From Amoebophrya sp. A120 (taxonomy: Eukaryota > Protista > Dinoflagellata), in assembly GCA_905178155.1 (NCBI GenBank), contig CAJINV010000003.1, positions 8,108,245 through 8,157,668 on the forward strand: DNA of 49,424 nt, read 5' to 3'. This document shows positions 11,872 to 47,528 of the stretch, one piece after another. The notes beneath the pieces were generated by a model that was not told where the DNA came from, did not search any database, and was given only the letters and a program-made list of their open reading frames with translations. The translations under genes and the position numbers were made by a program. Position 1 is the first letter of the stretch; every line of letters starts with the position of its first letter.

Positions 11872-14800
11872 ATGAGTTACGACCGAGGCTTCTACCTGCT
11901 GGGCGAGAAATGGTGGTGGCGCAACCCATGGACGGTGGGCCTGCAGTCCTTCCTCGGGGAGCAGCCGTGGCCAGCCACCCAGCTAAGCCTCTCCGACTTG
12001 CTGTGGTACGAGCTCTATTGGCTGGGCGTCACCTTCGCGCTTTTTGCGGTGCTCCTGCTCCTCATTCACTGGGCACTGTATGGCCACGGTATCACAGCCC
12101 GACCACTAGACGAGCAAAGTGCCGAACACAGCGGGCGCGAGACGTTTCTTTCGGACAACGAGCAGCAGATCCTACCAGCGTACCCAGTGGTGGAGCAGCA
12201 GAGTCCGCGCCCCAGTGGTGGAGAGGTAAAAAAGAACCGAAAAACCTCCGATGAAAGCGAAGACGGCGACGTACAAACGCCGACCAGTTCGGAAGACGGC
12301 GAGGACGGTAAGAACACTACAAAGACCACTTCTAGAAATAATGCACGAGGTGGCCCCGCCCGGACCAGCTCCTGTTTGCGGACGCTAGGGCAGTGTGTGT
12401 TTTTGCGCCCGAGTATCAAATGTAAAAATGTCTGGGTCTGGAAGCGTGTAAACTTGTGATGCAGATTTTCCATGACCAATGAGGTCTGGAATGCGGGACT
12501 TAGCATGACAGACTCTGCGAGGTCTCCGCCATGCCTATCCTGCATGAGAAACTCTCTCCTAACTTGGTCGAAAGTGGACAGCTTTTGGCACTCATGCAAT
12601 ACAGATTTTTGTATGCTTTAGATTTACCATGACAAGTTACCACCTTCCAGACCCAGACATATTTGCAATCCATACCGAGTGTGCACGAGCGAAACTGGGC
12701 CACCGGCACGCTCCTCGTCGTCACGGTCGGGTTGCTGTTCGCGAATCTGTGTGTGTATTTCATGCTGTCGGAACAGAGCGCCCTCTCCCGGGAGACGTTC
12801 TTAGACATGATGCACAAACTGGAAGATCTGGGCCGCGCCACCTGGCCGCGGGTGAGCAAAGACGACTCCCCGGCGACCTGGTTTGACCTCGCCGAACAGA
12901 AACTGACGGACATGGGCGATGTCGATGTGGCCAAAGTGAATGTGGCCAGTCGCTACGTGGCGGCTCAACTGCGGTCCCTGCCGCCACAGAAGGTGGACGT
13001 GAGTGCCATTCCCATTTTCCAGCCCAACGACGGCGAGACGGAGCCGCTCACGCTGGTGCGGGACTTTGCGTGGGTGTCTTCGCAAACGGTGCGCGGGGTG
13101 TTCGTTCGGCAAAACGACGGCACCGAGGGTTTGGTTTCGCACTCCTCAATTCTGCAGCAAATGCTCAAGGAGTGGATTCAGCGCCGGATGGACGGTGCCC
13201 GCGTACTCGAGATGTATCTGAGCAGCAACTGGTGCGACTCCGACTGGGCACCGCGCCGGCAGGGGCCTTGCGGAGGCGGGTTACCGCCGCCGCCGCCCGC
13301 ACAAGAAACGGCGGCTCCGAAGACGGCACCACGAGCACCGGAAGCCCAGCCGAAAATTCCGACCATCGACGAGATTCGAGCGAAGCGTACCGGCGTGGTG
13401 GGGGTAGAGCTCCCCGACGAGCGGGGCCCCCGCGAGAATCTGCACTACCACCAGAGTACCCCACAGGAAAAAGCAGGCCGGGCATGCTTGTTTATGCAAA
13501 AGTATCTACATGATCACAGAGAAATCCGCAATAGGCGACACTATTTGAGCATGCTGTTTGCGATATGCGATGCAGATTTTTCGACGTATTTGTTTTTGTA
13601 TGCTACTAAAGAATCCGTCCTGCCTGCTTTTTTCTGTCGTATACAGACCACGTCGAAGACGATTTCAGGTGCGTCAAACCAGTGGCTGGACGAGTCGGCC
13701 TGGGTCACGGCGGCCGGGAAAGGACAGACCGACGTGGTGACCGCCGACGACCCGCAGCTTCCGGCCCGGCTGCGACAACAGTGGCTCGGGTACTTCGTCG
13801 CGGTGCAGAACGGGAACTTTATGTCCAACAACCCGTTGCAAAACGCCCCCGCGACGGCAATACGGGTGGACTTGTTTTCGTACCGCGGCATGAGCCCCGA
13901 GAACCTGTACGAGCTCTGCCTGGATGCCTTCGAGGATGCGGTGCGAGCCGCGCTCATCAGCATCCGTGCTGTGCCCGGGTCCCAACCCTGGAGCTTGACG
14001 GACTCGGACTTCCTGGACAAGGTGCACGACAGCAACGCCTGGACATTTGTGTGGCTCAAAGAGAGAGGCGAATACGTCAAGTGCGTCATAAAAGCGGACA
14101 AAGACGACCCGTTCCAGGTCCCGGCGCTTCCCCCCAAGAACGGGGAGATGGCTTCGTTCCTGCAAAGGCATTCCAATGCCAATTCTGGTACAACTCCACC
14201 GGCGGACGATTTTGAGTTTCACACTACTCCAGATGCACCAGAGGCTGAGACTGCTACTGAACTGAACCCCGATGGTGCCGGCGCCCAGTCGAGAAGAAGA
14301 AGAAAGAACGAGGCGGGCTTTTTGTCTCCCGATATACCTGAAATGGTGGACGACGACGTGGCGAACGCGGGAGTGACGGAGGAGGGCGCGGTCGACGTAA
14401 ACGTCGCTGGATCAACACCTAGTGCCTCAGCAGCTGAGCAGCAGATGAGAAATAATAGGATCACCTCCTCCACCTCCAGTGTCCTCGCTGCCGGATTCCG
14501 GTCTCGCGCAACCGCAGCGCAGGCAAAGGTCGGTAGGGAGTCCCTCCTGCAGCTGCCGGACGATGAAGAGGACCCGGAATTTGACGGGTCGCTGAACTCC
14601 TCCGAACCGCCGCCGGGCTGCGTCGCGTGGTGGCTGAACGTGGACCCGAAGCCGGTGGCGCTGCAGCTGCTCGCGCAGTCCCGGTTTTGCCAGGAGGACC
14701 CGGACAACGTGGTGATTCCTGTCGACCACCGCGTGGTGGTTTCGCGGTTCGAGCTCGACCTGTACATGCTGCGGCAGAAGTACCGCCGCTTTTTTCTGGG

Positions 14801-17800
14801 TGCCACCGAGGACAACTCTGCCCGCGTGAGCCGCCCCACGTGGGACTCTCTTTTCTCCCTGCGGCTGGTCTGGAAGTGGCTGCACCTGGTCACCTTCGCC
14901 GTACTGGCACTCCGCTTCCTCGTGCGCCTGCTCACCGCCTACCACGTAGACCCGGAGGTGTACCCCAAGGGCGCCTGCAGCTACTTTCTGAAGCACTGGA
15001 CCGCGTGGCTGGAGCTGCTGTTGGTCCTCCCGGGGGTGTTTTTCACGTACTTGGCGCTGCACCGGACCGCCGAGGACTTCTACGGGAGCCACCTCATCTA
15101 CGGCACCAAGGAGATCATGCCGGGGTACTTTCTCTTTCTCGCGTTCGACGTGGCCGACTGCTATCTCGTGCTGCGTCGCCACAGCGCGAAGCTCCTGCTG
15201 CGCGTGTACGTCATCATTGCCCGGCCCTACGCGTACGCGCTGCTGCTGATGCTTGGCGCGTGGGTCACCATCGGGGGCGGGTATTGGCTGACCCCGGTGA
15301 ACCGGGAGATGCTCCCGGGCATCGGCAACGACCAGGAAAACGGGTCGGGGCTCCAGCCCTCCAAGGAGGCGGCCAACCTCCGGGAGACCGCGTTCTCGTC
15401 CATCGGGGACGCCATGTACCACGTCTTCGTCAACTTCAACGGGGAATTCCCGCTCGGCACCGACCACCTGACCTTCTGGAGTCGGTTCTGGGCCCTGATG
15501 AGCGTGTTCGTCGGCGTTTTAATTCTCACGATTCCCGTCGGCATCTTCAGCAAGGCGCTGCAAGAAACGCTCGAGGAGACGCAAGCAGATCAACTGCGAC
15601 AAAGCCTGGAGGACGAAGAGCAATCCGCCCGGGCAGCTGCTAACCGGGAAAGCAAAAGTACAACCAGAAGCAGCAAGGTGGAGCCAACGGATCGTGCAAG
15701 CTCGAGCGCGCGGGGCAGTATTAAGTCATCTTCTTCACGACCACGCGAAAGGGAGAGTTTCCTCAAGTACGATTTGGAAAATGATGAAGCTGAACTGTTG
15801 TCCGATGTCGATTTGGAGTCCCAAGCTGGCGTGGATCCCAGCAATAAACCGGCGACCGGTAGCAAGCGTGGGATGTTTAAGCGCATGGAAACCGAGACGA
15901 TTCTGGACCAGCAGGAGCGGCTTGACGAACTGGACAAGCAGCGGGAGCACGTTGGCCTCTCGGATCCGCTGGAAGACGATTTTATCGACGGAATCGAGTT
16001 TCGCCCTGGTTTCTGGAAGCTGCTGGTACAATTGCCGATTCTGCATGGTTTTTTATTGAGTTTTTATTTCCGTGGAGATTCTTGATACATAGCATGTCTT
16101 TTGAAAATCTTTTGCAGTGTTGATGAGCCTTCGACGCGTACTGCTGTTGCGTTCGTGGTTTCCGCTAAAGTCGAACTTTACGTACTTGATTATTACCTAC
16201 GGGTCCAGCTCGAGCTGTTCGTCCCGTTTTTTTACTTCTCATGCCCGGCGCCGCGAGCGCTCCTACGGACACAGTGGAAGCATATTGATAATTGGCTTCC
16301 GAAGGAACGTCGGGAATGTAAGTCAGTATCAATCTCTGTGACAACATTCATTACTTGTCTCACAACGAACTAAACAGGGGAGCCTACTGATTCGGCGCAG
16401 TTGTTTGTACGCAAGCGCCTCGGTGGGAATGTGCTCCATCCTGGTCTACATTGTGTTTGACTACTACCAGGGTTACGCCCTCTTCGTGTACGACCAGGAC
16501 ACCTCGGTGGCGTTCCAGCCGTGCAGCTACTGGGACTGGAATTACTTGTGCGGGCGCATCGACCGGAGCCAGCGGTACTCCACGTTCAGCGTGACGGCGA
16601 CCTCCAGTGCGACGACGCCGCTAGATTTGACCGGCGCGCCCGGGCGAGAGGAAGCAGACGAGAGCCCCAACTACCTGCACGGCGACTACTACGTTGCGTT
16701 TAACACCCTGCTGGTTCTAGAAACGGTGTGCATGCTCTTTTTTCTCCTCGAGTACCTCGTCCGCCTGGTGGACAACAACTGGCACGAGCGGTGGATCAGT
16801 CACAAGGTGCAGCGCCGGATCGGAGCAAAAAAAATCCGGTACGAGATTGACACCAGTCGTCCCTACCCCTTCACCGTTTGGTATGAGAGTGTCAGGATCG
16901 AAATCGACAAAATCGACCAATTTGTAATGCATAAAACGTAGGGCACGTAAGGCCTGTGTTAGGGAGCAGGCAAATGAGGCCGATTGCAAGCCTGTTTAGG
17001 GGTATGGAATGTGCTGCCAGAGTAGCATGAGAGGAGCCGTCTTCTTTGCCCAAACAGCATGACAGACTGGATTTTGGTGCTCCCGAAATTTGTCATGGGC
17101 CACTTGGAAACTGCGGCCCCACCTGGTATCGATTTTATGCATCACAAAGTATTTCGATTTTGTCGATTTCGATCCTGACAGTTCCATATCTGGGGAATCG
17201 TGGACCTTATTGCCTGGCTGCCCTCCTGCGTCATGCTCATCATCTTCGCCTACCAGTCCACTCTCGACAACAAGTGCGACACCGACGGCCACAAGTACGG
17301 CTGCATAGATCTCACGCAAGACTGGTACGAATTATGCAGTGATTACTTTATTTTGATTGAATACAACGACTACGTAGTTTTCCACCTGTGTAACATGAAC
17401 AAGAACTCAGTTGACGTTAATATTACTGTTGGGCACTGTGTTCAAGATACAGATAGATGATCGCGCATTCCCAGATGCACTATTGATTGATATGCCCCCC
17501 ATGCTCGGTCGCAGGTTTATCCGAAATCTTGCATGCAAATCCCTCGTTTCCACACTAGGATGAGATCGCCCCCATTGATTCACACTAGGAGATGATCGCC
17601 CCCATTGATTCCAAGCGACGGATCAGCCCCTGACAAATTACCCCAGTGCTCTTCGGAGCCCGGTCCTTCGGGACATATCGGCTACAGCGTGGTAGTTGAT
17701 AGGTGAAATGTCGGGCCCTCACACGGATTCGCGCTCTTAACATGAGAGATTTCGCAAGTTTTCGCTCGTGTTATAGCATAAGGCCGTGCAGTGTATATTG

Positions 17801-20800
17801 ATTGATTGATTGATCACTGGGAGGTTGTTATTTACTGTTCCGGGGGAATTTCTTTATCTTTTTTCCATATACAATACAGGATCTGGAACGTGTATTGGTT
17901 CGTGTGTTTCCGGGCCCTGAAAATGGAGCGGTTGCTGCATGGGTTTTCCAGTATCCGCAAAATCCTGGGGCAAGCGCTGGGACTGTACGAGTTTTTTCTG
18001 GTGGTGATCTTCAGCCTGATGCTCACTCTGAGCGTCGTTCTCCACATCACGGAAGTGAATAACCCGGACAACGAAATGCGGCGACAAGTCTGGTCGTTTC
18101 CTCGATCGCTGTGGGCGGTGGTCCTGACGGTAAACGGCGAGTCGCCGTGGTCCGACTACACGTACAAGGGTCGCGTGGTTCATGTGTACATGATGCTCCT
18201 GGCCGTCCCGTTTTTTGCCGTTCCCTGCGGGTTGTTCGCCAACGCATACCACAAATACCTGGGCCAGATCCAGAACCCGCCGCCGCCCAAGCCGGAGGGT
18301 GGAGACCACGCGGGCAACTCGGAGGACGGCGACAGCGACAGCGACGACTTCCTTGACCACGTGGGCGCCGGCGCGCCCAGCAAGAACAACGACTCGTCGC
18401 CAGACGGGGGCAACAAGCATATCGACGACCCTCTGGACTATGAGGATTTCCTCGCCGACGACGAAACGAAGAAGTCCGGCAAGCAGCTGAGCCGCGCACC
18501 GCAGACCGGGCTGTCGTCTGTGCGGCGCGCGTTCTCGAGTCTGTCGAAGCGCACGCAGACGCAAACCAGTTTCTCCGCGTCATCGGAGCTGGACTCGGAT
18601 CACCGGCGCGGGGGGGAGAACAAGCGCGACCGTGCCGCGTTCATGCGCGGTAAGACATTCGAATCGGTGAAAGAGGAGCCGATCTCGCGAACCGCAACCT
18701 CGGCCAGCAGCAATGTTGACGCGGAGCGGCACGAAAAGAAGGAGCTCTACAGCCGGCGCTCCGCCGGGCACGCCACGCCGCCGGCCTCTACCTTGGAGCC
18801 GGACGGGTGGGTGCACGCGCAAGATGAAAATGGCGAGGAGGGGAGTCCTCTGCTACTGGACGAACAACTCGAGCCTGGTGGTCCAGTGGCCACGACTCTG
18901 CGCAACCGGAAGAGCGTAACAGAACAACCCGTGAAGGGAATCATAAGAGCGGACGGAACAAAGTCGAAAATGTTTGTGCGAAAGAAAACTGCGCAGCTGG
19001 CCATGAGTGTTGCCTCCGAGGATCTGTACGTGCCGGCGCCCCTGTCCCGGTCCTCGCAGGGCAGCGCGTTTGCTGCGGAGGTGACCGTGGAAGACCTGTG
19101 TCAGGACTGGAAGGGCTGCTTTCCAAGTGATAGCGCCACGGTGGTGGAACAAAGACACAACGACGACGAAATCAAGACCGGCGCAACTTCTACGACAACC
19201 GGAGCGCCGCCCTCCTCCTCCTCCCCCCTGGCGATGGGGCTGCGACGCCGCATGCTCGAAGAGGAGCAGCGGCGCGAGCGCATTTACCCGGCCGCAAGCG
19301 AAGAGTGGGCGGGGGTGCATCGTGTCATTTGGTCACCAGATCACGTGTTGTTGGCCAGTCCGGCGGAGCGGTTTTGGGCGAAGCTGCGCAAAACCCTCAC
19401 GATGCTGCTGTTACCTCTGTTGTTCTTCAACACCGTGTACTACTCCACGCACCACTTTTGCGCGCTGCACAATTTCCAGCAGCTCGAGGACTGGCGAGCG
19501 TACCTCGAAGACCGGCTGCGGCGGCTGGGCATGCGGTCCGCCGCGGGCGAACGTATCGACAAAACCGAGCACGGTACCACCCTCATGGTCCTGAGCTACC
19601 ACAACAACTTGCGAATGAAGATCACGCTCACCCCCCAACCGGACGCGCAGGAGTGGACTGTGACTCAAGAGACTGAGCAGGCGCTGTACTACCCCGACGC
19701 GGCCTTCGCGCAGCCGGAACTCGATCCGGATACGGGCGGCGTGGTCCCCCCACCGCCCCGGCTGTTTCGCGCCTTCCCTGCGTCCTACGAGACGCAGTAC
19801 CGGCCGCCCGATCACAGCTTCCTGCAGCGCTATCTCGTGCGGTACTTCGTCAGCAAGCGGCAGCTGCTGGTGGCCTGCAGCGCGGACGACAGTGGGGACG
19901 ACAACGACTCCGACGACCCCGAGACGGGGCCGGCGGACACCGACCACACCCACCTGACGGTGCCGGTTTGGGTTTCCTTCCTGTCCGCGGACCAGGTGGA
20001 GCGGAAGCGGGCCGCGGACTTCCCGCAGAGTCCGCAAGATTTTCTGGACTGGATCGAGCAGGAGGCCGAGAAGCTTTGCAAGCAGATCTCCCAGGAGTAC
20101 AACGCGGACGACGTGACGCGGTCGGACGCCACCAACGCGGACAGCCTGGCGGCCGAGAGCTTCGACGCAGTGCGAAACGACGCCGCCCGCGAGTGGCCCG
20201 ACCGCCAGAAGTTCTACGGCGGGCGGCTGGTGAGCCGGGAGCAGGCGCTGCACGAGATGGACGCCTACATTGCGGGGTACGAGGCCTTTCTCGGCATTGG
20301 TGGCTCGTCCGACACCGCCGCGCCGGGCTACCAGCTGCCGGCGCCGGGTGTGCTGGAGCGGCTCCGAGTGGGGCTTTTCGGGCAGGACTACGAGCACTTG
20401 CCGAACTGGTTGTACGCGGTCGACTTGCTGATATTCGGGGTTTTTCTCATCGACTACATGTTGATCCTTCTGTCGTCCGCGAAGAAAACCTGGTATCTCA
20501 GCGGGGTCGCCGGGATCTGCCACCTCTCCGGGCTGGTCGGCCTCGCCATGACTCTGGTCATCCGCTTCGTTGCGGAACACGACGAGTTTTTCAACGTGTA
20601 CGCAGACTTGATCTACTCGGCACCCGGCACCGCCGCACGGTACGCGATGCTGACCGCGCTGTCGCTCCGCATGTGCATGGTCGGCTACCTCGACAATTTG
20701 TATCCCAGCATCCGTATGGTCTACGACAGTGTCGTCAGGTACGCCAGATGATCGAGTTCATAAAGTTTCGTCAATTTTTTGAATTTGTGATGTAAGGTTA

Positions 20801-23326
20801 TTGGCTCCAATGTCAAATTCCAATTTTTTTTACTTACTTGAAAGGGAATAAATTCAGTAGATGCAGCAGAGAAAAGAGAGGCAAGTACGCGAATAATCAT
20901 CGAGTTGTCTTCAATATGGTTGTTTCTATGTTGTTGTCACACGGAACAAGAAACTAGGAAGAGATCATGCGCTTTTTGGAACATTCTGAAATTGTAAGAG
21001 CCCCGCCGTAAGTGAGGAACTGCTTTCGTAAAGAGCTGCAAAACATCGGCGAGAAATAAAAAACAGGTATAAGCGCGAAATGATGCAGGCAAGCTACATC
21101 GTGCTGATTGTGTGGCTGTTTGCGAGTGCCTTGTTTCACCTGTCGGAGCGGGACAACTTTGGGACGCAGAAGGACCCGGGAAAAATGTCAACGTGGCGCA
21201 CCATCGAGGGCCTAGACAGCGAGGGGCACTGGCGCACGCTGCTGCGCCCCGTGAACTACTCCCGGTTTTACACCATTTTAAACTCCTTTCAATACATCAT
21301 GATCCATCTAACCGGCGACTACCCCATCACAGAATACACAAACGTTGGCCGTATCCTGCATTTCATTCTCATGGCTGCGGCGGCGGGTTTTTTGGCGGTT
21401 CCGACGGGTCTCTTCGTTGCGGTCTACGCACAGCAACTCAAACTCACGCGGGCCGCAACCATGCATCTGGCGCGGCGATTTGCGGCCGTTCGTGTGCAGA
21501 GGCATTTCCGGGGCGTTTTGGCGCGAATAAGGTTTCGCAAACTTATCCAAGCTGCGCGGGAAAACAAGGACCTGGTGCAGTCCGCACAGCCGACATGTTT
21601 TGAGAAGTACGCTACAAGATTTTCAGTTCTTCCTCTGGTTTGATTTCAATTTGGTAGTCCAGCACCTTTGGGCGGTTTGTTGTACCAACTTTCGTGCTGT
21701 CACTGCTTGAAAATATACTTGATGCATACAATGGCACTCCTCATGAAGTTGAAGTCCGACTTCTGCTCCGATCATTAGTATGAAAAACGAAACCAGGTTT
21801 TCCGATTGGTGTCTGTCACTGGTGTCGACTCGGCCTTGGCAGGTAACACGTTTCGGATATTATTTCCAATGGTTCATGATTGTGATCCATGGAACCGCGG
21901 CCCTGCTTGGAATTGTCCTGTCGACGCGGATCCTTCAGTGGGTCGACCCCGATGATCACGGCTCGTTCCGGCAGACGGCTCAGGGGTATGCAAGAGAAAA
22001 ACTGTGTAAGTGTAAGTCTGTGATGCAAAGCATGCAACATTGTTACACTTGTCATGCTAGGCAACCATGAAGTCCTATTTCATTTCTGTTTTCACTTACT
22101 TACTAGCAGCTGCGCATGACAGGCTTTGTCTGTCATGCAGAACAGATTTGTCATGCCGTCACCCTAAGACACTGACACCTACACTAACACAGTTTTTTTG
22201 TTGGATAAGAGTTTGTGGGGGTTGAGTCTCGTGTGCCAATGCTTTTTCCTCGTTGAGTACCTCCTCCGACTCGTCGCGGCGCGCTCCATGCCCCAGCTGA
22301 ATTTCTCGCCCTGGCGAATGTTCAAAAAAGTGGCCAGCCTGCTGGATCTCGGCCTGATCGTCACGTGGGTTGCTTGCAACCTCGCGGTGTACGCAGCTGT
22401 CCGCAACTACGACAGCAACACCACCCTCGCGGGGCCGCCGTTCATGAAGCCCACGAAAAACGTGGTGGGACCGAGTCGCGGTGAGCCCTCCGTGCCCGTC
22501 GAGGACTGGATGGAGGCTGTCATATGGGTACTATACAATGCGTAGTTTATTAGTACTTCTACTAGGCAGTGACCTGCTGTTCATCAACATCTTCGCTGAA
22601 AATGGTTGTCCTTTAGAACTTTTCTCAGGCAGGATGTAATTATACTTTTGCGACCGCATGGATCGATTGTCCTTTGTGGGATTTGAATATACAACAATTC
22701 TGTCTTTGAGTTGTTTCAAAAATACACAACAGGATCGAGTTCCTAACTTTCTACTTGCGCTTCACATTTGGCGACTTTTGCACGCGTTATTTTTCGCGGA
22801 CTGGTCACTGCACGTGAGCGGGCATCTCGCAACCCAGCAATTGATGGCGAACGCGGGCATTTTGGCTTTGTTTGTGTTTCTGATTGGGGGTACGCTGTGG
22901 TGGTTGTGCGAGCGGCAGTTCCAGAATGAGTTTGACAGCCTGTGGAGCGGGATCTATGGCGGGAGCATCTTCCTGTTGTCCGAGTGGTTCGTGTGTGACT
23001 TCCAGGTACCGGGCAAGATTTTGTGCATTTTTTACTGCGTCGCAGGCGTGGGCATGTTCGGGATTGCCACCGGCGCCATTTACGACGGCCTGGGCGAGGG
23101 ACTAAACCACTTCGTCAAGTACCGTCAACACGTCACGTGGAGTATGCTCAAGGAGGACTTCCACGACCGAGAGATGGAAGCCCGGCAGCAGGCGCGAGAG
23201 ATCCTGGACGACTACTACCAAATCGCCCCGCCGGGCGAGCGGGTGCGGGTGACGCACTTGCTCCTGCCGGGCGGCCGCCGCTCTGTCCCATCCGGGCGGT
23301 ATAATAATTCCAGGAGTAGTGAATGA
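11872..23326 (+). CDS. Large four-repeat ion transport (voltage-gated-like superfamily) protein with IQ motif, ~3006 aa, 9 inferred exons
   Basis: Exons ~11872-12413, 12680-16025, 16378-16881, 17194-17324, 17880-20738, 21067-21606, 21797-21985, 22212-22527, 22733-23326, all frame-consistent. Pore loops NFNGEFP, TVNGESPW, HLTGDYP, FLLSEW, each followed by an S6-like helix; S2 FFLxEYLxRL; S3 IVDLIAWLP; IQ-like VQRHFRGVLAR. Confidence 0.8.
12414..12674 (+). mobile_element. Introner element family A (261 bp), non-canonical intron
   Basis: TIR TATCAAATGTAAAAATGTCTGGGTCTGGAAG ... CTTCCAGACCCAGACATATTTGCAATCCATA; TSD CCGAG; removing 266 nt gives FLRPSVHERNW. Confidence 0.93.
16882..17188. mobile_element. 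Introner element family B (307 bp, ~55-nt TIR), non-canonical intron
   Basis: TGTCAGGATCGAAATCGACAAAATCGA inverted at both ends; flanks TTTGG/TCTGG; removing 312 nt gives YPFTVWGIVDLIAWLP. Confidence 0.92.
21987..22207. mobile_element. Introner element family C (221 bp); intron 21986-22211 reads GT-AG
   Basis: TIR TATGCAAGAGAAAAACTGTGTAAGTGTA / TACACTAACACAGTTTTTTTGTTGGATA; flanks AGGGG/AGAGT; removing 226 nt restores frame. Confidence 0.88.
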
Positions 23327-27289: not shown

Positions 27290-30200
27290 GCGCACCACCG
27301 CCAGGAGAGGATGAGCGGCGCTCCAGGAGCGGTCGGCGCGGTGGAAGAGAGCGAGACCGCGACCGAAACCGCGAAAGAGATCGCGAAAGAACCGCTGGTG
27401 GGCGAGACCTCGAGCGCGGGCGACACCAGTCGACGAACAATGACCGGGCTGGTACCGAATAGTTTTACATTTTTTTTCTTGCGCAAATGAATAAATAAAA
27501 AAAAAAAAAACCTCCCGGTCTCGTCTGTTTCGGTATCGGTGGGCAAAAAGGAATGCACACTACTTCCTTGTCTTTTAGTTTTTTTCCTTGAAATTGCAAG
27601 ACGGTCTCTTTCGAAATCAGGTAACGAGGAATACGACCGCGAGCGGCGCAACGAAAAGTCTCGCCGCGATCGTGAAGCGAATCGTCGGCGTTCGCGCGAC
27701 CGGGAGCGCGACCGTGGCGGAAGAGGTGACCGCGACGAACTCACGGGAGCGCAAGACCACAGTCGAACCGGCAGTGTTGCACCTACGGGCGGGAGTGCCT
27801 CTGGAGCGAAGACGGACCGTGGCCAGAACAAGTACCAGAATCAGCGGGGCAGCACGCGGGATTTCGATCGACAGGAGCGCGGCACGGGAAAAACGACTCT
27901 ATCGGAGTACAGTAGAAAAGATAACACCTCTAAAAACTCTGCGTCCTCTAATGACTACTACCAAGCTGCACCCACCAGTAGTGGAAGTAGTGGGCACCAG
28001 CAGCACCCGGCCGCTGGTGCGAGCGATTCTTCTCTGGGAGGTGCGGACAAGAGCAAGCGCGGAAAAAGCGAAAAGCAGCCCGTGGTACCTGCTTCGAAAA
28101 AAGAAAACGAAGCCGAACGAGGACGGCTGGCCAAGCTGCGGGACGACGCGAAAAATAAACAGGGTGACAAAGCGAAAGCCGGCAGCGGGGAGGCTCCGAC
28201 GTCATCGGCTATGTTGACGGCTTCTAAGAAGAACAAAGGTGAGGACAAAAAATACGCGCACAAGGACACAGGCTCCACTAGGGCAGAGAAAGAGCAAAAT
28301 AAACCGAAGGATGCCGATAAATTGTCGTCAAAAGCAGGAACGTCGAAAGATAAGGCTGAGAAGCTCACTGCTCGGGAACAGGAGCCGGAAAACAAGGTGT
28401 CTAGCAAGGACAAGGATAGGAAGAGAGCCAACACCGGTACCAAAGCCGCGACGCCGTCCTCGAAAAAAGAGAAAGAGAAGGAGCAGGCGAAGGTTGTCGT
28501 GAAGGATGGAAAAAAAGATGATCCCATGGATGTTGATCACGATGACGAACTTGAGTTTCAAGACACCTCCCGGCGCGATAAGAGGAATAAGCGAGACAGG
28601 GAGAAGAAGGAGAAGCGGCGGGGGTCCGACAAGTCCGCCAAGAAAAAGGACATATCAACTGTAAAAATGTCTGGGTCTGGAAGGTTGCAACTTCTCATGC
28701 TAAATCCGTATCATGCAAAGATCTGTGTTGCATGATTGCCAAAAGCTGTCCACTTTCGACCAAGTTGGGAGGGAGTTTCTCATGCAGGATAGGCATGAAA
28801 GAGACCTGGCAGACTCTGTCATGCTAGGTCCCGCATTCCAGACCTCAAGGGCCATGGAAAACCTGCGTGACAAGTTCACACTCTTCCAGACCCAGACACT
28901 TTTGCATTTCATAGGACACGAACGACGACAAAAACCGCGCCGTCTCCCCGGATCGCGAGGAGCGCAAAGCGCGCAAAGATGCTGCGAAGAAGAATGATGA
29001 CGACGGGACGGCGAATAATACTAAATCTGCTCGGAGTGTCGAGGACAAAACTACTGCGCGTCTCGAGAGGGAGAAGGAAAGGAAGAACCAAGATAGAGCT
29101 GCAAAGAGGGACCAAGAGAAAGAAACGGCGTCGGCGAAAAATAAACGAGCAGCTTCGCCTCCCCAAGGGCGGAGCGGCTCATCCGCAAAGACCCGTCTCG
29201 CACCGCCTGCCGTCCCGGCGATGCCTTCATCATCCAGCAGCGCTGCGGGAAGCTCCACCGGCGTCGTTCTCACCAAGCGGAGCGATGTGGTGCTCGAGAA
29301 GAGACGGAGCGCTGGCCGGGATCGACGGCGAGAGCGTCGAAGATCCAGCCCTGACCAGCGAAAAAAATCCGGACGCGAGCCTCCGCGGGCGGACGGAAGT
29401 TCGGCCGCCGGAGTGGCACCGCCGAAACTACTGACAGCTTCTGGTGCGCCCACAGGTGTCCCGGGGTCGGGTACTACGGACAACGCATCTTCTGGAGCCG
29501 GGACTGCGCAGGTGAAAAAGGCTGTCCTTTCTCCGCGCGACCCGGACGGAGTGCTCGCGAATGGCAGTAACATCAACAAGAGTGGTGCACCACTGGAACA
29601 GGCAAATAAACCCAAGGTGATTTTGACTCCGAATCCTGCCGCGGTTTCGTCCCGGGAGAACACGTCAATCAATAAAACAAGGCGTGATCACCAGGAACAA
29701 GAAGAAGAGGAGGACGAACTTGTCGACGTGTCGCTGTCTAAGATAAAACCGCGGAAAAAAAAGCGCGACCGAGAAGATCGGGACCGCGAACGGGAGCGCG
29801 CGACCGGGGGAGTGCGAGCAGAAGGGAAGGAGCGGGACCACAATAATGTCCGGGACCGAGGAGTCCGAGGGGACCAACACCGGCGGGAAAGTAACCGAAC
29901 GGGCCCAGGTGACCGGCCGCGCCGAGTTGTGACAGCTCCCGACATTCAAGTGTCCTCCGGAAGTCGAGCGGCATCCGCAGCCGAGGACATGGTAGACCAC
30001 GAGGCGAAAAAGAAGAGAACCGAGAAAAAGCATACCGCACAAGACAAAGGACCACGTGTTGGCACAACATCAGCAACGGGTGCAAATAAAGTCGCGCCAG
30101 TGTTGAGTAATGGCTCGATCGCAGCAAATGACGCGCCCATTCAGGCCTTGAGTAAGAAAATGGAGAATAAGCAAAGTGCTAAAAATCATGCGCCGGCTGG

Positions 30201-39726: not shown

Positions 39727-40629
39727 GAAGGGGGCGTTTGGGTTTCATTCAAAACACAGGGAGCGGAAAGAACAATCTTTTCTTGAGCTCCTCTTTTGTT
39801 CTGTCGCGTATCATGTTGTACCTCGTACCTATACAGCAAACGCCGATTTTCGAATTTCACTCATCTCCCTCCGTGAATAGAACAGCGGAGGTAACTTGCC
39901 GCATCACTAACTGTCGCGTATTCTCAACACCCCCGCGCGGCGGACACAATCTCGCTTGGGTGGGAAAACGAAAAAGCAATCATCTAACGACCACTTAGCA
40001 CGTGAATCTTAAACGACTACACATCGAAAATGCGAATGCGTGAGACGCATTGATATGTATCAACAGCGTTCTCGCCAAATCTTGCAGCGACGGAACCGAC
40101 TGCATTCTTGTTTCCGCCTCGTTCTTGGTTTTCAAATAATGACCAGAGGACCGCTCTCCTCGCGAAAAAAAGAGAGACGCAAAAGATGCAATTCCTAACC
40201 TCAGGCTCAGCAAGATTACGGAAAGTCTTAGTAGAAGAAATGATGACGGAGCGTACGCAAATAATTGTAAGAGAGGAGGCCAACGCGAACGCCAACGCGC
40301 GGTTGCTTGAGAGTTGCCAAAGGTTGATGTGCTTTTCGTCCATTGTGTTTTCGAGAAACAGTTTTTTCAACTTTAGAACCTTCCTGTAGTCACGTGTAGT
40401 TACACGGCCATTTGTCAGTTGGCATGTGGTGATCTTTGCATATTGATGGTGACGCTGTAAGTACCATATTTATACATTTTTCATTTCTATGGCGTATCAC
40501 AACGCGTCTACGTTCGCGGCAAGTCGACCCGAATTGTTGGGATGATTTTTTGACGCGGTGGCGTCAGTCAGGCCCAAGACAAAGACACCAGACGTCTTTT
40601 CACAGTGCGCCTTGGGTCAAACTTGTCTG

Positions 40630-43600
40630 ATGCGGCCGCAATCTGGATCAGCTTCCTCGGATTCTTGTCCGTGTATCGACATCGAGCCGGGGCCACCTGT
40701 AGAGGGCATGAATTCAGTAGGGGCAACAAGAGAAGCCACCGAACCTTCGCCGAAACCCGGGGAAACCGGTCCTGTCGTTGTTCGGAAAGATGACTTCTTG
40801 CCTGGAAACCGCAAAGACGGCATCGGAAGAAATGCTGTGCCCACTGCCAAATGGAGGGAAGATAAAGATGAAGCTCTCGGCGATTATTCCGGGGAACGAA
40901 ATGTCCTTGATGTCGAGGACTCTTCGCCCCCTACCACGGAGCCGTTTCTCAAGGCGGTTCTCCGGAGTTACGGTTGCTTTGTCGGGAGACACCCCAATGT
41001 GGTGTTTTTTCTTGTGCTGCTTTTCTACGTGCAGATGCTGAAGTATGCAATTTCCAGCGCTGCGGGGGCTGGCGACACCCAGAACATAGGACCTGCACAT
41101 CGGCACGATGCTGGAGCTATCAAAGGCAAATATGTCTGGGTCTGGAAGATAATTGCCAGGCTTGTCATGCATATTTTGCATGGCCCATGATGCCTGTAAT
41201 GTATAACCTGGCGCCACAGATTTTGAGAGGGCTTTCTGATGCGTATTGTTCCGCATGAGAAATACTGCCCTCTCCGCGTAGCACAAACTGGACTTCTCCT
41301 TTATTATTGCTGGTTATGCAATACAGAGTTTTTTGGAAAAATCCAAAGACCGCATCACATATTTGCATTTCATAGGAGCCCGAAAGTCTCAGCAGGGTCC
41401 GGCTCTTTTTGAGCCGGGAAGAGGTCGGGTGGATTATTGGGAAGGTATGATATTATATCGCAAGAAAAAACTGTTTCACTGTAGACTTGTGATGCATAAA
41501 CTGGAACACAGAACTATTTGTCTTGCTACACCTACAAGACCGTGACTCTTTCAGGGTGTTTTCCCTTTGGAAGGGAGCATGGCAAATTTTCTGTGTCATG
41601 TGTAAGAAACTTGTGATGCAGATCTTGCAAAACCATCACAGTGAAACAGTTTTGTCGTGGGATATAATATTAATTTCCGGCCGCTGTAAAAGTGAAAGTA
41701 AAATGTTGATATTGCTTCCTGATGGAAGATGTTGTTTTACGGAACAGGTATTCCGATCCTGAGAAGGCGCTCTTTCGGAACATTTTCTCTCCACCAAATA
41801 AGATGCGTTTTGTCATGCGAAGATGGCATACTAAAAATGAAATTCCAGGGCGGCATATCACAGGAAGAAAGTGTTGCAGTTACACATTTGTTGGAGTTTT
41901 AGTTACACATTTGTTGCAGTTAGTCCGGGGGCCAGACACGATGGATTCATAAGTGGATAAACTATATCCTGTGCAAAAGTATCGCACTCGTATAAATGCA
42001 TTACAAATTTCCCCAGCATGAGAAATAAAATTTGTCATGCGGATTTACCGTAAGAAAAGAATTTGTAATGCATGATGCTGAAGTATGCAATTTCCAGCGC
42101 TGCGGGGGCTGGCGACACCCAGAACCTGAACAGCAGAAAAGGGGCTTTCGCACTATTTGAGGTTCCGAAATTTGTCATGCTAACAGTGCTTACGAACAAT
42201 GTGTGAATTAGGTATTTTGCATTACACATGAGGAGGAGGGGGAGTTGTGCACTTCCATACTGCTTTATCGCGTACACGTATCCGTACACGTATTCTTCCC
42301 TCCGCACCCTACTCCGCATATCAGATGCAAATATGTCTGGGTCTGGAAGGTTGCAAGTTGTCATGCAGATTTTCCATGACCCATGAGGTCTGGAATGCCG
42401 GACCTAGCACGACAAACTCTGCGAGGTCTCTGTCATGCCTATCCTGCATGAGAAGTTACTGCCTTCCGGACCCAGACATATTTGCAGTGCATACCGCACG
42501 ATCCAAACCGACGAGCAGTACGCGGAGAAAGCGAAATTGATGCGGAGACGACCGTATCCTGTGCAAAAGTATCGTACCCGTGGTAGTAATTGCGTTTATG
42601 CATTGCAAATCTCCATCTGAAGGTAAAACAGCATGACAAACTCCATATGTCATGCTGAGCTAATTTGTATTGCAATTGCTACTACTACGATACTTTTGCA
42701 GTTCATAGACCGCTGTGCCAAACGCTCGGCCGGGCGGAGGTGGATCTGTTGTCCATCAGTAATTGGACCGTCCCGAGAGAGGACAAACGGTACGTCGTCA
42801 TTTCCTCCCGCGTCCACCCGGGTGAGGCAAACGCGTCGTGTATCCTGTGTAAAAACGTCCACACTTCTGCATAGTTGTCATGCAAATCCGCCATGACAGA
42901 AAGATTTGTGATGCCCATCTCCATGACAGGTATTTCCAATCGTCTTTTGACATTTGTAAGGCTGTGAACAGGATGAGAAAGCGGCTTTCTCATGCGGCTT
43001 CCCTTGCTACTCAGCACTACACTGCAGGTGAAAACTTGTTATGCGCAACTCCTAAAACTTGGAGATTTGTGTTGCAGATTTACCAACTTGACTATGAAGT
43101 GGGGACGTTTTTTGTCAGGATATCGTGGTTGATGCACGGGTTTCTGAACTTCATCCTCTCCAACACCCCAGAAGCGCAGGTGCTGCGGTCGCACTTCATC
43201 TTCAAAATCGTGCCGATGCTGAACCCCGATGGGGTGATTTCCGGGAACTACCGGTGCAGTCTCGCGGGTGTGGATTTGAATAGGCAGTGGCGGTTCCCGG
43301 ACCCGGTTTTGGTATGAAAGTGCACAACTCCCTCTGCCCCTCATTTGTCATGCAAAATTCCAAATCCACCCTGCGCCTGTTAGCACGGGTGCAGATGCTG
43401 AAGTATGCAATTTCCAGCGCTGCGGGGGCAGGCGACACCCAAAGGGACACGTTCGAGGCACGTTTCACCCTGTGCGGCGGCACAACGTTGTAAAAACGTT
43501 CTGTGAAGGAAGTACTCAGAGATCTCCACAACGACCGAAAACGACCGAAAACGACGATCCTGTAGTTCTACTTGATGCAGGCAAGAACACTGTTGGTACA

Positions 43601-46600
43601 ACTAGTAAAAGCGACGATCAGGAGGGACATGATCAAGATAAGGATGCAACTAGTTCATCAACTACATCTTCCCCACTGGATAAACCCAAACGCACCTCGG
43701 TCGAACTGCGGGACGAAATCAAGGCTTTGCTGTCTACGTACAACAAACAGGCCGAGGAGCGCAGCCGAAACTTGTTGAACCCACCGATGCAACCCACTAG
43801 CACCAGTCCCGTTCCTGCTGTGCTCGCGGGAGATATTAGCAAGACAGACACCAATACTGCTTCGCGGAAGAAATCGGTCACGTTTTCCTCGGCAGTGGTG
43901 GAGCACGAGGACGATGATACTGTTGCTGCATCTTCCTCTCCCAAAGCGGATAAAAGTGGCGTAGTATCGGAGGTGTCGAAAAAACCTCTAGTTTCCTCAC
44001 CGAGCGCAACTGCAGTTCAACTACCGAAGGCTACTAATACAACTTCCTCCTCCGCAACAACTGCAACCGACTTCCTGAATGGGGGCATGAAAGTGTCCGC
44101 CGCAGTGTTGAACTCTCATGGGTCCGGGAATTTCGTTCCGGTTGTGCGGAAGAACGACCGGAATGGCCGGGAAGAGCTGTTTTTTGAACCCGTCCAGGGG
44201 AATAACATGTTCGCCGCGACGTCCTCTAGTGCGGGTCAGGGAGGGCATCACAGCTTGATTTATCAAATGCAAAATGTCTGGGTCTGCAACTTTGCTCGAC
44301 TTGTCATGCCTGTTTTCCATGACCCATATGATCTGTAATGGAGGACCTAGCATGACAGATTCCGACCGTGCGATCACTATCATGCCTATCCTGCATGAGA
44401 AACTGCCTCTCAACTTTTCAATTTCCAGCGCTGCGGGGGCTGGCGACACCCAAAATCTTAACAGAGATTTGCACAGGGACAACATGATGAATCACCTGCC
44501 CACCGAGCTTCAGTGGTCTGCGAGTGGTGGAAAACTGGAGAAGGGCATTCGGCTTTATCGCGAGCTCATCATGAACGAGACCATAACCGAGCGATCGCGG
44601 CCCGGAATCGCTGCAGGGAAAAACACCCCCGCGACTCCTCCAAAGAAAAAGGTTTGAGTCAGTTTGTTTACCGCGTTTCGAATTGAGACCGGCACGCGCT
44701 GAGGCCCAGACTTTTTGATACGACGGCACGCTGACGGCTACTATTTTTGCGTCGAGCATACCGTCGGGGAAAACAGGGGGCCCCCGCCTCCCGCCCTTTC
44801 GCCCGCTGGGTATCCTGCCCGCAGGGGGCCCCCCGCCGCCCGGCTCCCACCCGCTGGGTATCCCGCCTACAGGGGGCCCCTCGCCCTCCTCTTTCACAAC
44901 CCACGCGCAGGGGACCCCCGCCTCCTTGCCCGCACCCCCTCCCGCCCTTTCGCCCGCACCCCCACCTTTTTCTTCGCGGCGCAAGAAATCACACAGTGGT
45001 CCGACCGCCGCGCAAATCGCTCGCCGAACAACCAGAAGTCCGTCGCCGAGGGTAACGCCGTGGCTGCTTTCGTACTGACTGCGATGGTCCTCATAGGTAC
45101 CATTGCGCGTGTGCCCTCACGTATTGCTGCCGCACCGGACACCGAGAAAGCGGCATGGACACTTGCCTGGCCAATCCTGGCGGAGATTGCCGGGTCGGTG
45201 CTCCGGACCTCACTCGCAACGAAACTCAGGCAGGGTCAGGCGCGCGCCGACAGACTTTGCAGGCACGGGGAGGAAGTGGATTCATCCCCGCTTGCTCGCA
45301 ACGATATTCAAATCGCATTGGTGCTTGGCGCGTTCAATTTTTGGCGGGCCCTCGTCGGTCGGTTTCTCGTTGCCAGCTTTGATTCTACGGGCATCGCACT
45401 AACAACGCTGACGGTGCAAGCATTCGAGGAAGTACTCTTCAGGCAGACGTTCGATTGGCGGGACCAAATGTATTCTCTCCAGGGGTTTTCCTTTTGCTAA
45501 ATCATTGAGTACCAGCTCCCTTCTTGGCAAGCATACTTTACGCATTGACTTGACGTTGACTTTCGGTCTTCTTCTCAAGAGATGAAGTCCGTACAACTTA
45601 CTTTTTATCAATCGATGTTCTGTTTTAGTTGGCGGTAGATATGATCATCAAAGTCGAAAAGATTTTTGAATATGAAAAATGTGTAGGTACGCCAAGCATG
45701 TGTGCCGGTGGACTGAGGAGCGCATCGAAAAGGAGTTCAACTCGAAATCGCCTCGGCATTTTCAGGCGCAGGTCCTCCTATCAGAGATGCAGACTGAGTA
45801 CGCGGCGATCGCGCTTGCCCCTCTTTCTATTCTGATCTGGTACGACCTTCGATGGATTTGGAATCTTGGTTACCAATATTTTTTGTGGCGCGTCTCGGAC
45901 GGCTGACCGCAAGACACCTCAACCGGCCTGAGTTTAGCGCTATGGCCGGCGTTGGTGGCCTTCGCGGTTAGGCGCCAGAATTAGAGCGCATCACGCTGGG
46001 CTGTGTTTTACCCTTACGCTTGGTTTCAGTGTGTTTTGCCCCAGTGCCTCTCTGACATTCTCCGCCCGGCCCTCTTTCTGGCGGCGGCGCTTTCGTTCTG
46101 CTTGGAGCCTCACGCGCCGTTTGAGTGCGGCGAGCCCCGATGCGTTGACGGCCAGCCAAGGGTCTTGGATTTGCATCCGAGCAACCATGAGGGCAAGTGC
46201 CGGCCTCCCGGGAAATAGCCTCTGGGGGTCGTCCTTGGGGGTTCAAGAATGGGGTATCCGACATTTTGCTCCGATGCATTTTTCTCCATCGTGATTCGCT
46301 TCAGAAAAAAACGCATCGGAGCAGTTTTTGTCGAGGTTCTTGTTAGATGTATTGGACAACATTGGATCTCGTTGAATCTGCTCTGATGGAGACAGGGATG
46401 CGTTTTTCGGATCGAAGCCCTGGGCCTTGAGTGCCTTTGGACCGCTAACGAACCTGAAGAGGTCCATCAGGGCAACTCACGCGAGCCTGGGGGCATTGCT
46501 CTCAGCTTTGGTGACGAAATCGAGGAAAACAATTCCCAGATCCCTGATCCGGAAAACGCATCCGTGTCTGCATCCGAGCAAAATGCATCACCAGCAAACT

Positions 46601-47528
46601 TGCTCCGCTACGGTTTTCTTTTACGGAGGCACGGGTGTGCTTTTCGGATCAGAGATTCGAGCAAGCAAAGTAGCGAACTTGCTCTAGTGCCTTCTTTACT
46701 GCTTCGCTCTTTGTAAGACGGCTTGGTCTCTCTCCAAATGCATTAGAGCAACCTCGTGTCTGATTACAGTGCGCGCGCCAATGTCTTCAGTGCGGGTAGG
46801 TTTTTCGCACTGTGTGGACCTGATGCGGAGAGGCGGGGAATTGCATCGGAGCAAACTTCCAAAAACCTGCTGCAACAACCCCTTCCGAGGCCTTTTTCGT
46901 GCTTATCAGCCCAAGCAGGTCAAATTGTCTTCGAGCTCCTACATTTTGCGCAGATGCTGGCGCGGATGAAAATTTTACACCTTTAAGGTACGACCTACGT
47001 TGGATTTGGAATCTTGGTTACCAATACAAACAAGAAGTCGACTTCATTCACCTGCTTGCGCCACTCTTTCTCGGTCTGCTGTATGAAGTCGTTGTGGACA
47101 CGCTCTGTTTGAGTGTGGAGCAGAACATGTACTGTGTTCCGGTCGATAAACAGTGGGAAAACTGGCCAAAAGGCTGGAACTGGAAATGGAACAATGCGAC
47201 CCCGAAGTGCGAACTCCGTGGACTTGCCGGGGAGGAGGCGAGCCAGAAAAAGACGGAGTTGGACGAAGAAAATAAAGGGTCTATTGAAGATATTCCGGCG
47301 TCTGCAGAGGAAACGAGCCGGCGCTTGCTCTTTTTCTACGTCGCCATTCTGATTGGCTGCTACTTTCATTTTATGTACGCCTTTGACATGACTGCTTCCA
47401 TCTACTTTGCGTGCGGAGGATGGGCTGAGGTTCGCACGGATTTTTTCTACTACAACGTTTGCGCATCCACTCCGGATTGTATTGATCTCAGAGACGGCTA
47501 CAAAGTGCTCAACGAGTATTGCGAATAG
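40630..47528 (+). CDS. Uncharacterised multi-pass membrane protein interrupted by large direct-repeat-flanked inserts (could be a pseudogene)
   Basis: Segments 40630-41085, ~44457-44650, ~44960-45469, 45687-45839, 46988-47528 are frame-compatible and contain several hydrophobic helices; GT-AG introns 45470-45686 and 45840-46987; junction at 44650-44960 unresolved. Confidence 0.6.
41118..41374 (+). mobile_element. Introner element, family A-related (257 bp)
   Basis: Left TIR TATCAAAGGCAAATATGTCTGGGTCTGGAAG; right end ACATATTTGCATTTCATA; TSD GGAGC. Confidence 0.88.
41456..41664. mobile_element. Introner element (209 bp) nested inside an intron
   Basis: TIR TATCGCAAGAAAAAACTGTTTCACTGT / ACAGTGAAACAGTTTTGTCGTGGGATA; flanks TATTA/TAATA. 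Confidence 0.8.
41965..42073. mobile_element. Truncated introner (same TIR family as 42555), cut by repeat copy 2
   Basis: TATCCTGTGCAAAAGTATCG start; inner inverted repeat ATGCATTACAAAT/ATTTGTAATGCAT present but outer right TIR missing. Confidence 0.75.
42319..42493 (+). mobile_element. Introner family A, internally deleted copy (175 bp)
   Basis: Family A TIRs; TSD CCGCA; removal restores the CCP frame. Confidence 0.92.
42555..42707. mobile_element. Introner element family E (153 bp)
   Basis: TIR TATCCTGTGCAAAAGTATCGTA / TACGATACTTTTGCAGTTCATA; TSD GACCG; removal restores the CCP frame. Confidence 0.9.
42841..43122. mobile_element. Introner element, family D-related (282 bp)
   Basis: TIR TATCCTGTGTAAAAACGTCCACACTTC / GAAGTGGGGACGTTTTTTGTCAGGATA; TSD TCGTG splits the ASW of HPGEANASW. 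Confidence 0.9.
43313..43388. mobile_element. Truncated introner left end (family F); a right end of the same family lies at ~42235-42259
   Basis: TATGAAAGTGCACAACTCC is the near reverse complement of GGAGTTGTGCACTTCCATA. Confidence 0.75.
43444..44260 (+). pseudogene. Captured Ser/Thr-rich coding fragment of an unidentified gene
   Basis: Frame of ORF 43472 is open from the repeat junction to an introner start at 44261; no domain recognised. Confidence 0.55.
44261..44418 (+). mobile_element. Truncated family A introner, cut by repeat copy 4
   Basis: TATCAAATGCAAAATGTCTGGGTCTG plus family A interior (ATGCCTATCCTGCATGAGAAACT); no right TIR. Confidence 0.85.
44775..44965. repeat. Degenerate C-rich short repeats (CAGGGGGCCCC, CCCGCTGGGTATCC, CCCGCCCTTTCGCCCGC)
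   Basis: Direct reading; probably intronic. Confidence 0.6.
45839..47026. mobile_element. ~1.1 kb insertion flanked by a 40-nt duplication of host coding sequence; forms GT-AG intron 45840-46987
   Basis: 45839-45878 vs 46987-47026, 38/40 identical, both encoding [13 protein letters not shown]. Confidence 0.8.

Follow-up and report, generated by a model that had tools for sequence, protein, structure and literature searches.

Kilobase pieces of other genes between repeated copies of an exon stretch in Amoebophrya sp. A120: a possible product of recurrent break repair

Introduction

Even for Daphnia, the best-studied case, it is not known where most newly gained introns come from (PMC4202315). 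In Daphnia pulex neointrons were traced to the repair of staggered double-strand breaks, parallel gains at one site made up 43 of 90, and repeated bouts of breakage were proposed (PMC4202315). In this work we describe a locus of the dinoflagellate Amoebophrya sp. A120 in which a short exon stretch of a Patched-family membrane-protein gene occurs four times and three kilobase-sized pieces of other DNA (spacers 1-3) lie between the copies. The window, i.e. the whole stretch of DNA analysed, is 49,424 nucleotides long and corresponds to positions 8,108,245 to 8,157,668 of contig CAJINV010000003.1 (assembly GCA_905178155.1). An earlier note, made from the sequence alone, had described the array as CRISPR-like and had suggested either target-primed reverse transcription of pre-mRNAs or repeated templated break repair as its origin.

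The Daphnia neointrons resemble the array in being exon inserts that are flanked by a direct repeat of exon sequence and spliced out (PMC4202315), which in Amoebophrya is shown at a second site, 1.4 kb downstream. The repeats of the Daphnia neointrons are, however, 4-12 bp long and the sources of the inserts are mostly unknown (PMC4202315), whereas the duplications in the Amoebophrya array are 36-65 nt and the kilobase inserts come from identifiable genes; moreover, three of them are stacked on one chromosome and the repeat copies are allele-like. The cycles of templated insertions of cancer genomes (PMC7025897) share with the array the insertion of copies of distant loci, the re-replication of a host segment and the retention of the donors (here for spacers 2 and 3). 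They are somatic and the string normally returns to the host once (PMC7025897), whereas the Amoebophrya array returns after every insert, is inherited and is apparently spliced out. SPO11 double-cut end joining in the mouse germ line (10.1101/2020.06.23.168138, PMC13532658) yields two-chromatid tandem duplications, joins between homologs and ectopic inserts; the inserts use 0-2 bp microhomology and recur at hotspots. Unlike here, the mouse inserts are 15-967 bp long, lie within deletions and were seen mainly in ATM or MRE11 mutants, and no repeat-spacer array is known from them.

Introns bounded by direct repeats, one copy of which is left after removal, are also known from Amoebophrya itself, as introners and non-canonical introns (PMC7789003), and from dinoflagellates with identical repeated intron boundaries of 2-11 nt (PMC5032977). 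The Amoebophrya introners have 3-5 nt repeats and terminal inverted repeats (TIRs) of 8-20 nt (PMC7789003), whereas the array spacers have no TIRs and are not a repeat family. We found no description of the present arrangement in Amoebophrya in the open-access literature; the supplement of PMC7789003, which was outside the search, may list long non-canonical introns, and the intron set of that paper was restricted to 40-1000 bp.

Taken together, the array works like the Daphnia break-repair neointrons and the cycles of templated insertions. The earlier note had stated that no described system matches; this was too strong, given that the Daphnia neointrons, the cycles of templated insertions and the SPO11 end-joining events each do so in most respects, although none does in all. 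What is new is the length of the duplications, the traceable kilobase cargo, the three-fold stacking and the allele-mixed copies. CRISPR (clustered regularly interspaced short palindromic repeats) arrays also alternate a repeat with unrelated spacers, and the repeat is re-made at each addition. The Amoebophrya array differs from them in its ragged repeat ends, its self-derived kilobase spacers, its coding repeat and the lack of an integrase among the scanned open reading frames (ORFs).

Results

Architecture of the array

Self-comparison of the window located the exon stretch of 55-60 nt at 41029, 42069/42074, 43389 and 44419 (Table 1). A core of 22 nt is exact in all four copies, for which the expectation by chance was 0.00 (100 shuffles). 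The host segments duplicated at the array are 36, 52 and 65 nt long, and a 40-nt segment is duplicated at the second site. Both the length and the two ends of the repeat vary, in contrast to the fixed repeat of a CRISPR-like array. All three spacers are in the sense orientation of the host gene. The earlier description of four ragged copies, here 55-60 nt long, around three unrelated gene pieces (975-1255 nt) was therefore borne out. With the exception of the array and the event at 45839-47026, no second pair of such build was present among the 48 self-matches of the window.

The spacer ends carry neither TIRs nor poly(A), the best match between ends being 7-9 of 15 positions. The only sequence common to the spacers is internal introner sequence and their ends are unrelated, unlike the shared termini of a Pack-type TIR element or a Helitron. 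The claim that the inserts lack TIRs, long terminal repeats (LTRs) and Helitron ends thus held as far as inverted repeats and shared element termini are concerned.

Matches to the locus were obtained in 11 sequencing runs, six of which were examined (X1, X3, X4, X6, X7 and X9); all contig figures refer to the matches listed. X1 is a DNA run, which may be the assembly's own source. X3, X4 and X6 are RNA-type runs with a study code other than that of X1; none of them is on record as RNA, and X3 is shown as RNA only by a spliced contig. X9 is a raw RNA run. The earlier note had proposed to check whether reads span the junctions, and this was confirmed for both junctions of copy 3: the one with spacer 2 is spanned in all three RNA-type runs examined (X3, X4, X6) and the one with spacer 3 by an X1 contig (depth 34.7) without any difference. 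The junction between copy 2 and spacer 2 is covered by a low-depth contig only, with 10 differences (X7 record 17). On the left side of copy 4 a contig break in X6 and depth arithmetic fit a branch exactly at the copy 4 start, which points to this junction indirectly and does not span it. The junctions of spacer 1 with copies 1 and 2 had no spanning contig among the matches listed. The depth of X1 is 42-45 over the flanks and 35-44 over the spacer pieces, and it sums to about 159 over the repeat. Because this value is near that of four copies, the repeat is not a dispersed element, a possibility that the earlier note had wanted to see checked.

Spacer contents and donors

Spacer 2 was correctly recognised in the earlier note as a piece of a cytosolic carboxypeptidase gene. 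It matches Peptidase_M14 (Pfam, E 7e-7), its four exons are colinear with a full-length Amoebophrya AT5 protein (P0002, 1943 aa), to which a 63-aa exon is 97% identical, and the exon 43123-43311 is 100% identical to the Amoebophrya sp. A120 protein P0001. No full-length A120 carboxypeptidase was found in a search limited to proteins of at most 2000 aa (the AT5 ortholog has 1943 aa). The donor is a second carboxypeptidase copy in X1, which runs on past the end point of the spacer, and an X6 contig shows the donor exon spliced to further sequence. Spacer and donor differ by one synonymous change in the 190-nt exon and by eight changes in 74 nt of introner at the equivalent position.

The serine/threonine (S/T)-rich ORF noticed earlier in spacer 3 also proved real: it matches a 7469-nt transcript contig in X4, which we took as the donor. 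Compared with this contig the spacer has 32 substitutions and indel clusters of 15, 12 and 3 nt, all in-frame; 14 of the 31 classed substitutions are synonymous, and the ratio of nonsynonymous to synonymous change (pN/pS) is 0.40. X1 contains both the spacer version and the donor version at similar depth; the latter was also found among the raw reads of X9. The donor appears to be without the introner at 44261 (X1 record 8 runs on for 286 nt). For the first ~96 nt of spacer 3 (43444-43539) there was no second copy at 85% or higher identity in X1; it is possible that this piece represents an extra template jump. A search for donor loci had been suggested in the earlier note, and donors were present, retained as separate loci, for both spacers examined (2 and 3).

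The label of spacer 1 as a KH gene could not be confirmed, with no Pfam family and no PDB match; its exon pieces are at most KH-like in a motif. Exact look-up of ten single-exon translations found none of the ten in the protein collection.

Most of the spacer 'introns' are TA..TA introner elements with 5-nt direct repeats, which make up 58, 60 and 16% of spacers 1, 2 and 3, respectively. These elements conform to the description of Amoebophrya introners, whereas the spacers themselves do not (end matches of 7-9 of 15, duplications of 36-65 nt). Four complete introners are retained in spacer 2 and at least six in spacers 1 and 2 together; the gene model on spacer 2 (154 aa) has the introners excised. 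The right ends of all three spacers fall within truncated introners whose other copies continue (loose ends 44416 and 43386; one inverted match). The introns that had been reported as intact are mostly introners, and all three spacers end in a truncated one. Because introners are retained, all three spacers end inside truncated introners and there are no element ends or tails, the spacers are genomic DNA and were likely captured as DNA. The 3' tail and the processed RNA template of target-primed non-LTR retrotransposition are both missing, spacers 1-3 being tail-less and introner-containing, and target-primed reverse transcription of pre-mRNA, one of the two origins first proposed, is disfavoured by the lack of poly(A), the retention of all introners and the spacer ends inside introners.

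We also considered whether the right ends of the spacers are enriched in introners, and rejected this: with introners making up 0.58, 0.60 and 0.16 of the spacers, the probability that all three right ends fall in introners is ~0.06. The introners at 42191-42259 and 43314-43388 belong to one short family and lie in opposite orientations in the same carboxypeptidase fragment; the gene model covers the reversed one only partly. Introner copies of the spacer family were also seen at 12414-12674 and 28653-28913, in opposite orientations and inside coding genes, and the summed contig depth of this family in X1 exceeds 100,000.

Differences between the copies and order of insertion

The repeat copies differ at four sites in the array and at two sites in the second event. 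All six differences are synonymous (P ~0.002 under neutral decay of one copy); alignment confirmed those listed earlier (GCT/GCA; CAG AAC CTG/CAA AAT CTT). A CAG/CAA codon splits copies 1 and 2 from copies 3 and 4. Copies 1 and 2 are identical across their 52-nt overlap; copies 3 and 4 have the CAA codon in common, and copy 3 has one private synonymous change. The six synonymous differences and the two-plus-two split may reflect a join between homologs.

A similar pattern is seen in spacer 2, where none of the 35 columns conserved among 59 homologs is changed, and where the exon has one change vs. about ten predicted by neutral decay at half the introner rate (P 4e-4). In a copy without function, changes would be expected to spread evenly over all sites, which is not the case here; from this we infer that the capture events are young and that the differences between spacers and donors, and between repeat copies, are those between working alleles.

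Assuming that every insert duplicated a target already existing when it arrived, only two of the six insertion orders fit the copy extents, and in both of them spacer 2 came first. Spacer 2 may equally have been the last step, joining two alleles each of which already held one insert. Under either order it sits at the join between the two allele types. Polar growth from right to left is excluded by the copy ends, and growth from left to right fits only if copy 3 starts at position 6, its first five bases then coming from the introner.

Fate of the array in RNA

In the RNA-type contig X3 record 12, copy 4 is preceded by 19 additional letters, and the contig carries repeat positions 1-19 together with the exit of copy 4. 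Depth arithmetic places it on repeat positions 1-55 (1.713 predicted, 1.71 seen), a contig of exon 1 (depth 6.15) enters it, and its sole exit from the repeat is that of copy 4. This would fit a transcript from which the whole array is removed; the contig does not bridge the array, because the shared core of 34 nt exceeds the assembly word. Reverse transcriptase jumping between long repeats is an alternative source of an array-less contig. There is no GT-AG register in the repeat core, the sole register that ends in AG beginning with CG. Spacers 2 and 3 are also present in RNA-type contigs. No RNA-type contig was found over 43465-43502 and no X9 read on the host or gene B exons (gene B being the membrane-protein gene downstream of the host gene), and neither gap was used as evidence.

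A second event in the downstream gene

A duplication plus insert of array-like build, absent from the earlier note, was found at 45839-47026 in gene B, 1.4 kb downstream of the array: a 40-nt duplication surrounds an insert of 1108 nt, which begins with six T (ambiguous as a tail). X1 contigs enter this insert exactly 30 nt from each side at depth 42-44, and the inner pieces have a depth of 141-230. X3 record 14 extends across the insert, with 346 and 714 nt on its two sides, and the part removed is a GT-AG intron, 45840-46987. No RNA-type contig lies over the insert, a gap that was not used as evidence. The two target sites have no common sequence and no hairpin (z -0.85 to 0.19), thus no sequence-specific nuclease is needed. 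An atlas search with gene B gave no usable match.

The host gene and other features of the window

The host exon parts flanking the array are 56% and 55% identical to consecutive, overlapping parts of P0122, an intact A120 paralog, which has Patched and Sterol-sensing domains (HMMER search) and carries the repeat region once. The host frame does resume after copy 4, as claimed in the earlier note, for only 79 codons, then it stops at 44657. Because of this stop, and because nothing else of P0122 matches the window, the host gene may be truncated. X3 record 12 runs unspliced through the stop. Word-based protein searches with the host and gene B exons gave no match; these are weak blanks, as the host search missed P0122. 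The host stop adjoins a GC-rich multi-copy stretch at 44600-44960 (X1 depth 166-495).

Elsewhere in the window there are tandem units of ~1.2-1.4 kb at 2439-5339, with internal 20-nt repeats and an 82-nt stretch repeated thrice, and a tandem array with a period of ~197 nt from 48391 to the window end (49424). Long, nearly intron-free ORFs at 11772-23326, with weak ion-transport and IQ matches, are probably one or more channel genes.

Table 1. Features of the array and of the neighbouring gene B (window coordinates; repeat positions are counted from 41029 = 1)
Coordinates	Strand	Feature	Evidence
40546..41085	+	5' part of host exon, N-terminal region of Patched-family membrane protein; frame open from 40546, likely start 40630	56% identity over 50 aa to A120 paralog P0122; X1 depth 42-45, single-copy
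41029..41085	+	Repeat copy 1, positions 1-57, allele type A	self-match and alignment
41086..42073	+	Spacer 1, 988 nt: exon pieces, introners 41118-41374 and 41456-41664, terminal truncated introner 41965-42073	
42074..42133	+	Repeat copy 2, positions 6-65, allele type A	alignment
42134..43388	+	Spacer 2, 1255 nt: cytosolic carboxypeptidase fragment, four exons	Pfam; A120 gene model P0001, AT5 ortholog P0002; donor copy X1, spliced donor transcript X6
42191-42259, 42319-42493, 42555-42707, 42841-43122; 43314-43388		Spacer 2 introners; the last one truncated	
43389..43443	+	Repeat copy 3, positions 1-55, one private synonymous change	both junctions spanned by contigs
43444..44418	+	Spacer 3, 975 nt: ~96 nt donorless, S/T-rich coding 43540-44260, truncated introner 44261-44416	donor is X4 transcript contig
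44419..44657	+	Repeat copy 4 (from position 20, allele type B) and resumed host exon, stop after 79 codons	55% identity over 76 aa to P0122; X1 record 4, X3 record 12
45124..45469	+	Exon of downstream membrane-protein gene (gene B; start provisional)	X3 record 14
45687..45839	+	Gene B exon before second event	152-nt middle part of X3 record 14; bin depths 3.01 and 6.73 fit 45687-45838
45839..45878	+	First copy of 40-nt exon duplication, now intronic, gives GT donor	
45879..46986	+	1108-nt insert of multi-copy DNA	X1 and X3 record 14
46987..47528	+	Second copy of 40-nt duplication (two synonymous differences) and last exon of gene B	

Discussion

The observations bear out the part of the earlier proposal in which DNA of foreign genes is captured again and again and the target is duplicated anew each time, and of its two suggested mechanisms templated break repair fits best. 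On balance we consider it probable that the array arose by break repair which captured ectopic DNA and re-copied the target. Alleles would have been joined at least twice, and a meiotic break cluster would be the simplest setting. In such a scheme double-strand breaks would recur at one spot, likely in a zygote in which two alleles were joined, and three kilobase pieces would be captured as DNA. A broken end at repeat position 55-65 would acquire about 1 kb of another locus, via end joining or by template switching that ends at imperfect homology of 3-4 nt, and would then rejoin a chromatid broken or re-entered 36-65 nt further upstream, whereby the exon stretch is re-copied. At least the spacer 2 join and the second site would have linked different alleles (copies 1 and 2 vs. 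3 and 4), which would point to meiosis and a SPO11-type break cluster. The events would be young, the differences between spacers and donors mostly allelic and not due to decay. The array would leave the RNA as a non-canonical intron with direct repeats at its borders, and removal by splicing is likely the reason why the inserts are tolerated. The rounds could correspond to three separate meioses or to one multi-jump repair. Ligation of free fragments from four chromatids was also considered, and is disfavoured by the strict alternation and the uniform orientation. In the mouse, SPO11 breaks on two chromatids lead to tandem duplications, inter-homolog joins and ectopic inserts (10.1101/2020.06.23.168138), and A120 expresses SPO11, DMC1, HOP2 and MND1 (10.1101/2025.04.10.648098).

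It must be noted that a number of observations speak against this explanation. No zygote was seen in A120 culture according to the same study (10.1101/2025.04.10.648098), no insertion-free or differently filled allele was found, and metagenome scans gave no relative. The inserts of 975-1255 nt are longer than the mouse ectopic inserts (15-967 bp, median 95; PMC13532658). Random capture predicts neither the narrow size range of the four inserts nor that all three spacers lie in sense (a chance of 1 in 8), and the donorless 96 nt of spacer 3 are unexplained. Taken alone, spacer 3 is compatible with a neutrally decaying copy whose donor is under constraint (P 0.1-0.3), the one site that differs between copies 3 and 4 goes against a clean two-allele split, and fast introner turnover could mimic the contrast between exon and intron. 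The contig that suggests array excision has only 19 nt beyond the 34-nt shared core, below the 31-nt standard for bridging. Because the host gene looks truncated, the tolerance of the inserts may reflect lost host function rather than splicing.

A single mitotic multi-jump replication accident on one haplotype, of the kind known as microhomology-mediated break-induced replication (MMBIR), fork stalling and template switching (FoSTeS) or 'cycles of templated insertions', could have built both the array and the neighbouring insert, with later gene conversion giving rise to the synonymous differences. This would be in keeping with the presence of four similar-sized inserts in a stretch of 6 kb, spread over two neighbouring genes whose targets are unrelated, the truncation of the host just downstream, the imperfect 3-4 nt homologies at the right junctions and the retained donors; it fits the definition of such cycles in PMC7025897, and under it the ragged ends require no nested order. 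It would require, however, that independent conversions occurred later at the two sites, each ending at the borders of an insert, and that they divided the copies two and two; copies 1 and 2 are identical over 52 nt whereas copies 3 and 4 differ. We consider this explanation unlikely, though the most likely of the alternatives.

A bolder interpretation would be an Amoebophrya route that repeatedly captures ~1-kb pieces of the organism's own genes at break hotspots with re-duplication of 35-65 nt, coupled to splicing guided by long direct repeats without canonical sites. The two together would act as a self-correcting source of new introns and gene chimeras, and the spacer content would differ between alleles. 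We put this forward as a speculation and regard it as quite unlikely.

Another possibility is that the machinery of a non-LTR retrotransposon reverse-transcribed unspliced nuclear RNAs in trans at a preferred site, with long target-site duplications. The sense orientation of all three spacers, the ~96 donorless nt at the start of spacer 3, such as a template jump might give, and the six T at the start of the second insert would suit it, and A120 introners have been attributed to non-LTR elements (PMC12130899). Yet no array spacer has poly(A), none of the at least six complete introners in spacers 1 and 2 was removed, the duplications vary in length (36, 40, 52, 65 nt) and at both ends, and the two targets are unrelated. 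Reverse transcription cannot alone yield allele-type differences between the copies, and no reverse transcriptase was found among the 33 window ORFs scanned. We consider this route improbable.

Slightly less credit still is due to the view that part of the array (spacer 1 with copy 2, or the spacer order) is an error of assembly or gap filling through the high-copy introners. It draws on the junctions of spacer 1 not being seen and on no contig spanning the array among the matches listed, as well as on X1 possibly being the assembly's own source; against it, both copy 3 junctions and both second-site junctions are spanned, the spacer 2 to copy 3 junction recurs in the runs of another study, the depth of the spacers (35-44) is close to that of the flanks (42-45) with the repeat, at ~159, near four copies, and the copies carry private variants. 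A dedicated, programmed system writing host-gene fragments into a repeat-spacer array, as a CRISPR-like memory or regulatory locus, would explain three insertions in one 65-nt stretch, the uniform insert size and the spacers in RNA-type contigs, but it is scarcely plausible, given that the repeat ends are not fixed, polar growth is impossible from right to left and conceivable from left to right only if copy 3 starts at position 6, an insert of like build is present once at a target unrelated to this one, the 33 window ORFs scanned include no integrase-like gene and an Rfam search gave no RNA family, only one sub-threshold chance hairpin match. With its ragged ends, the near exclusion of strictly polar growth and the event at an unrelated target, the CRISPR-like interpretation of the earlier note was not upheld.

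Should the array represent a single rearrangement in a gene that is being lost, it would be a curiosity within a class already described. Its interest lies in intron-like inserts whose donor genes can be named, in a repair footprint that is still intact and in one clean spliced example. The array pieces are likely cut out of the RNA, and they would then show new introns being built from identifiable genes. If it is true that the 3.4-kb array is precisely removed without GT-AG sites, the locus would offer a natural test substrate for the unexplained non-canonical splicing of Amoebophrya. If the repeat copies are indeed mosaics of alleles, they would document, at the sequence level, repair between homologs in a parasite of which no zygote has been observed.

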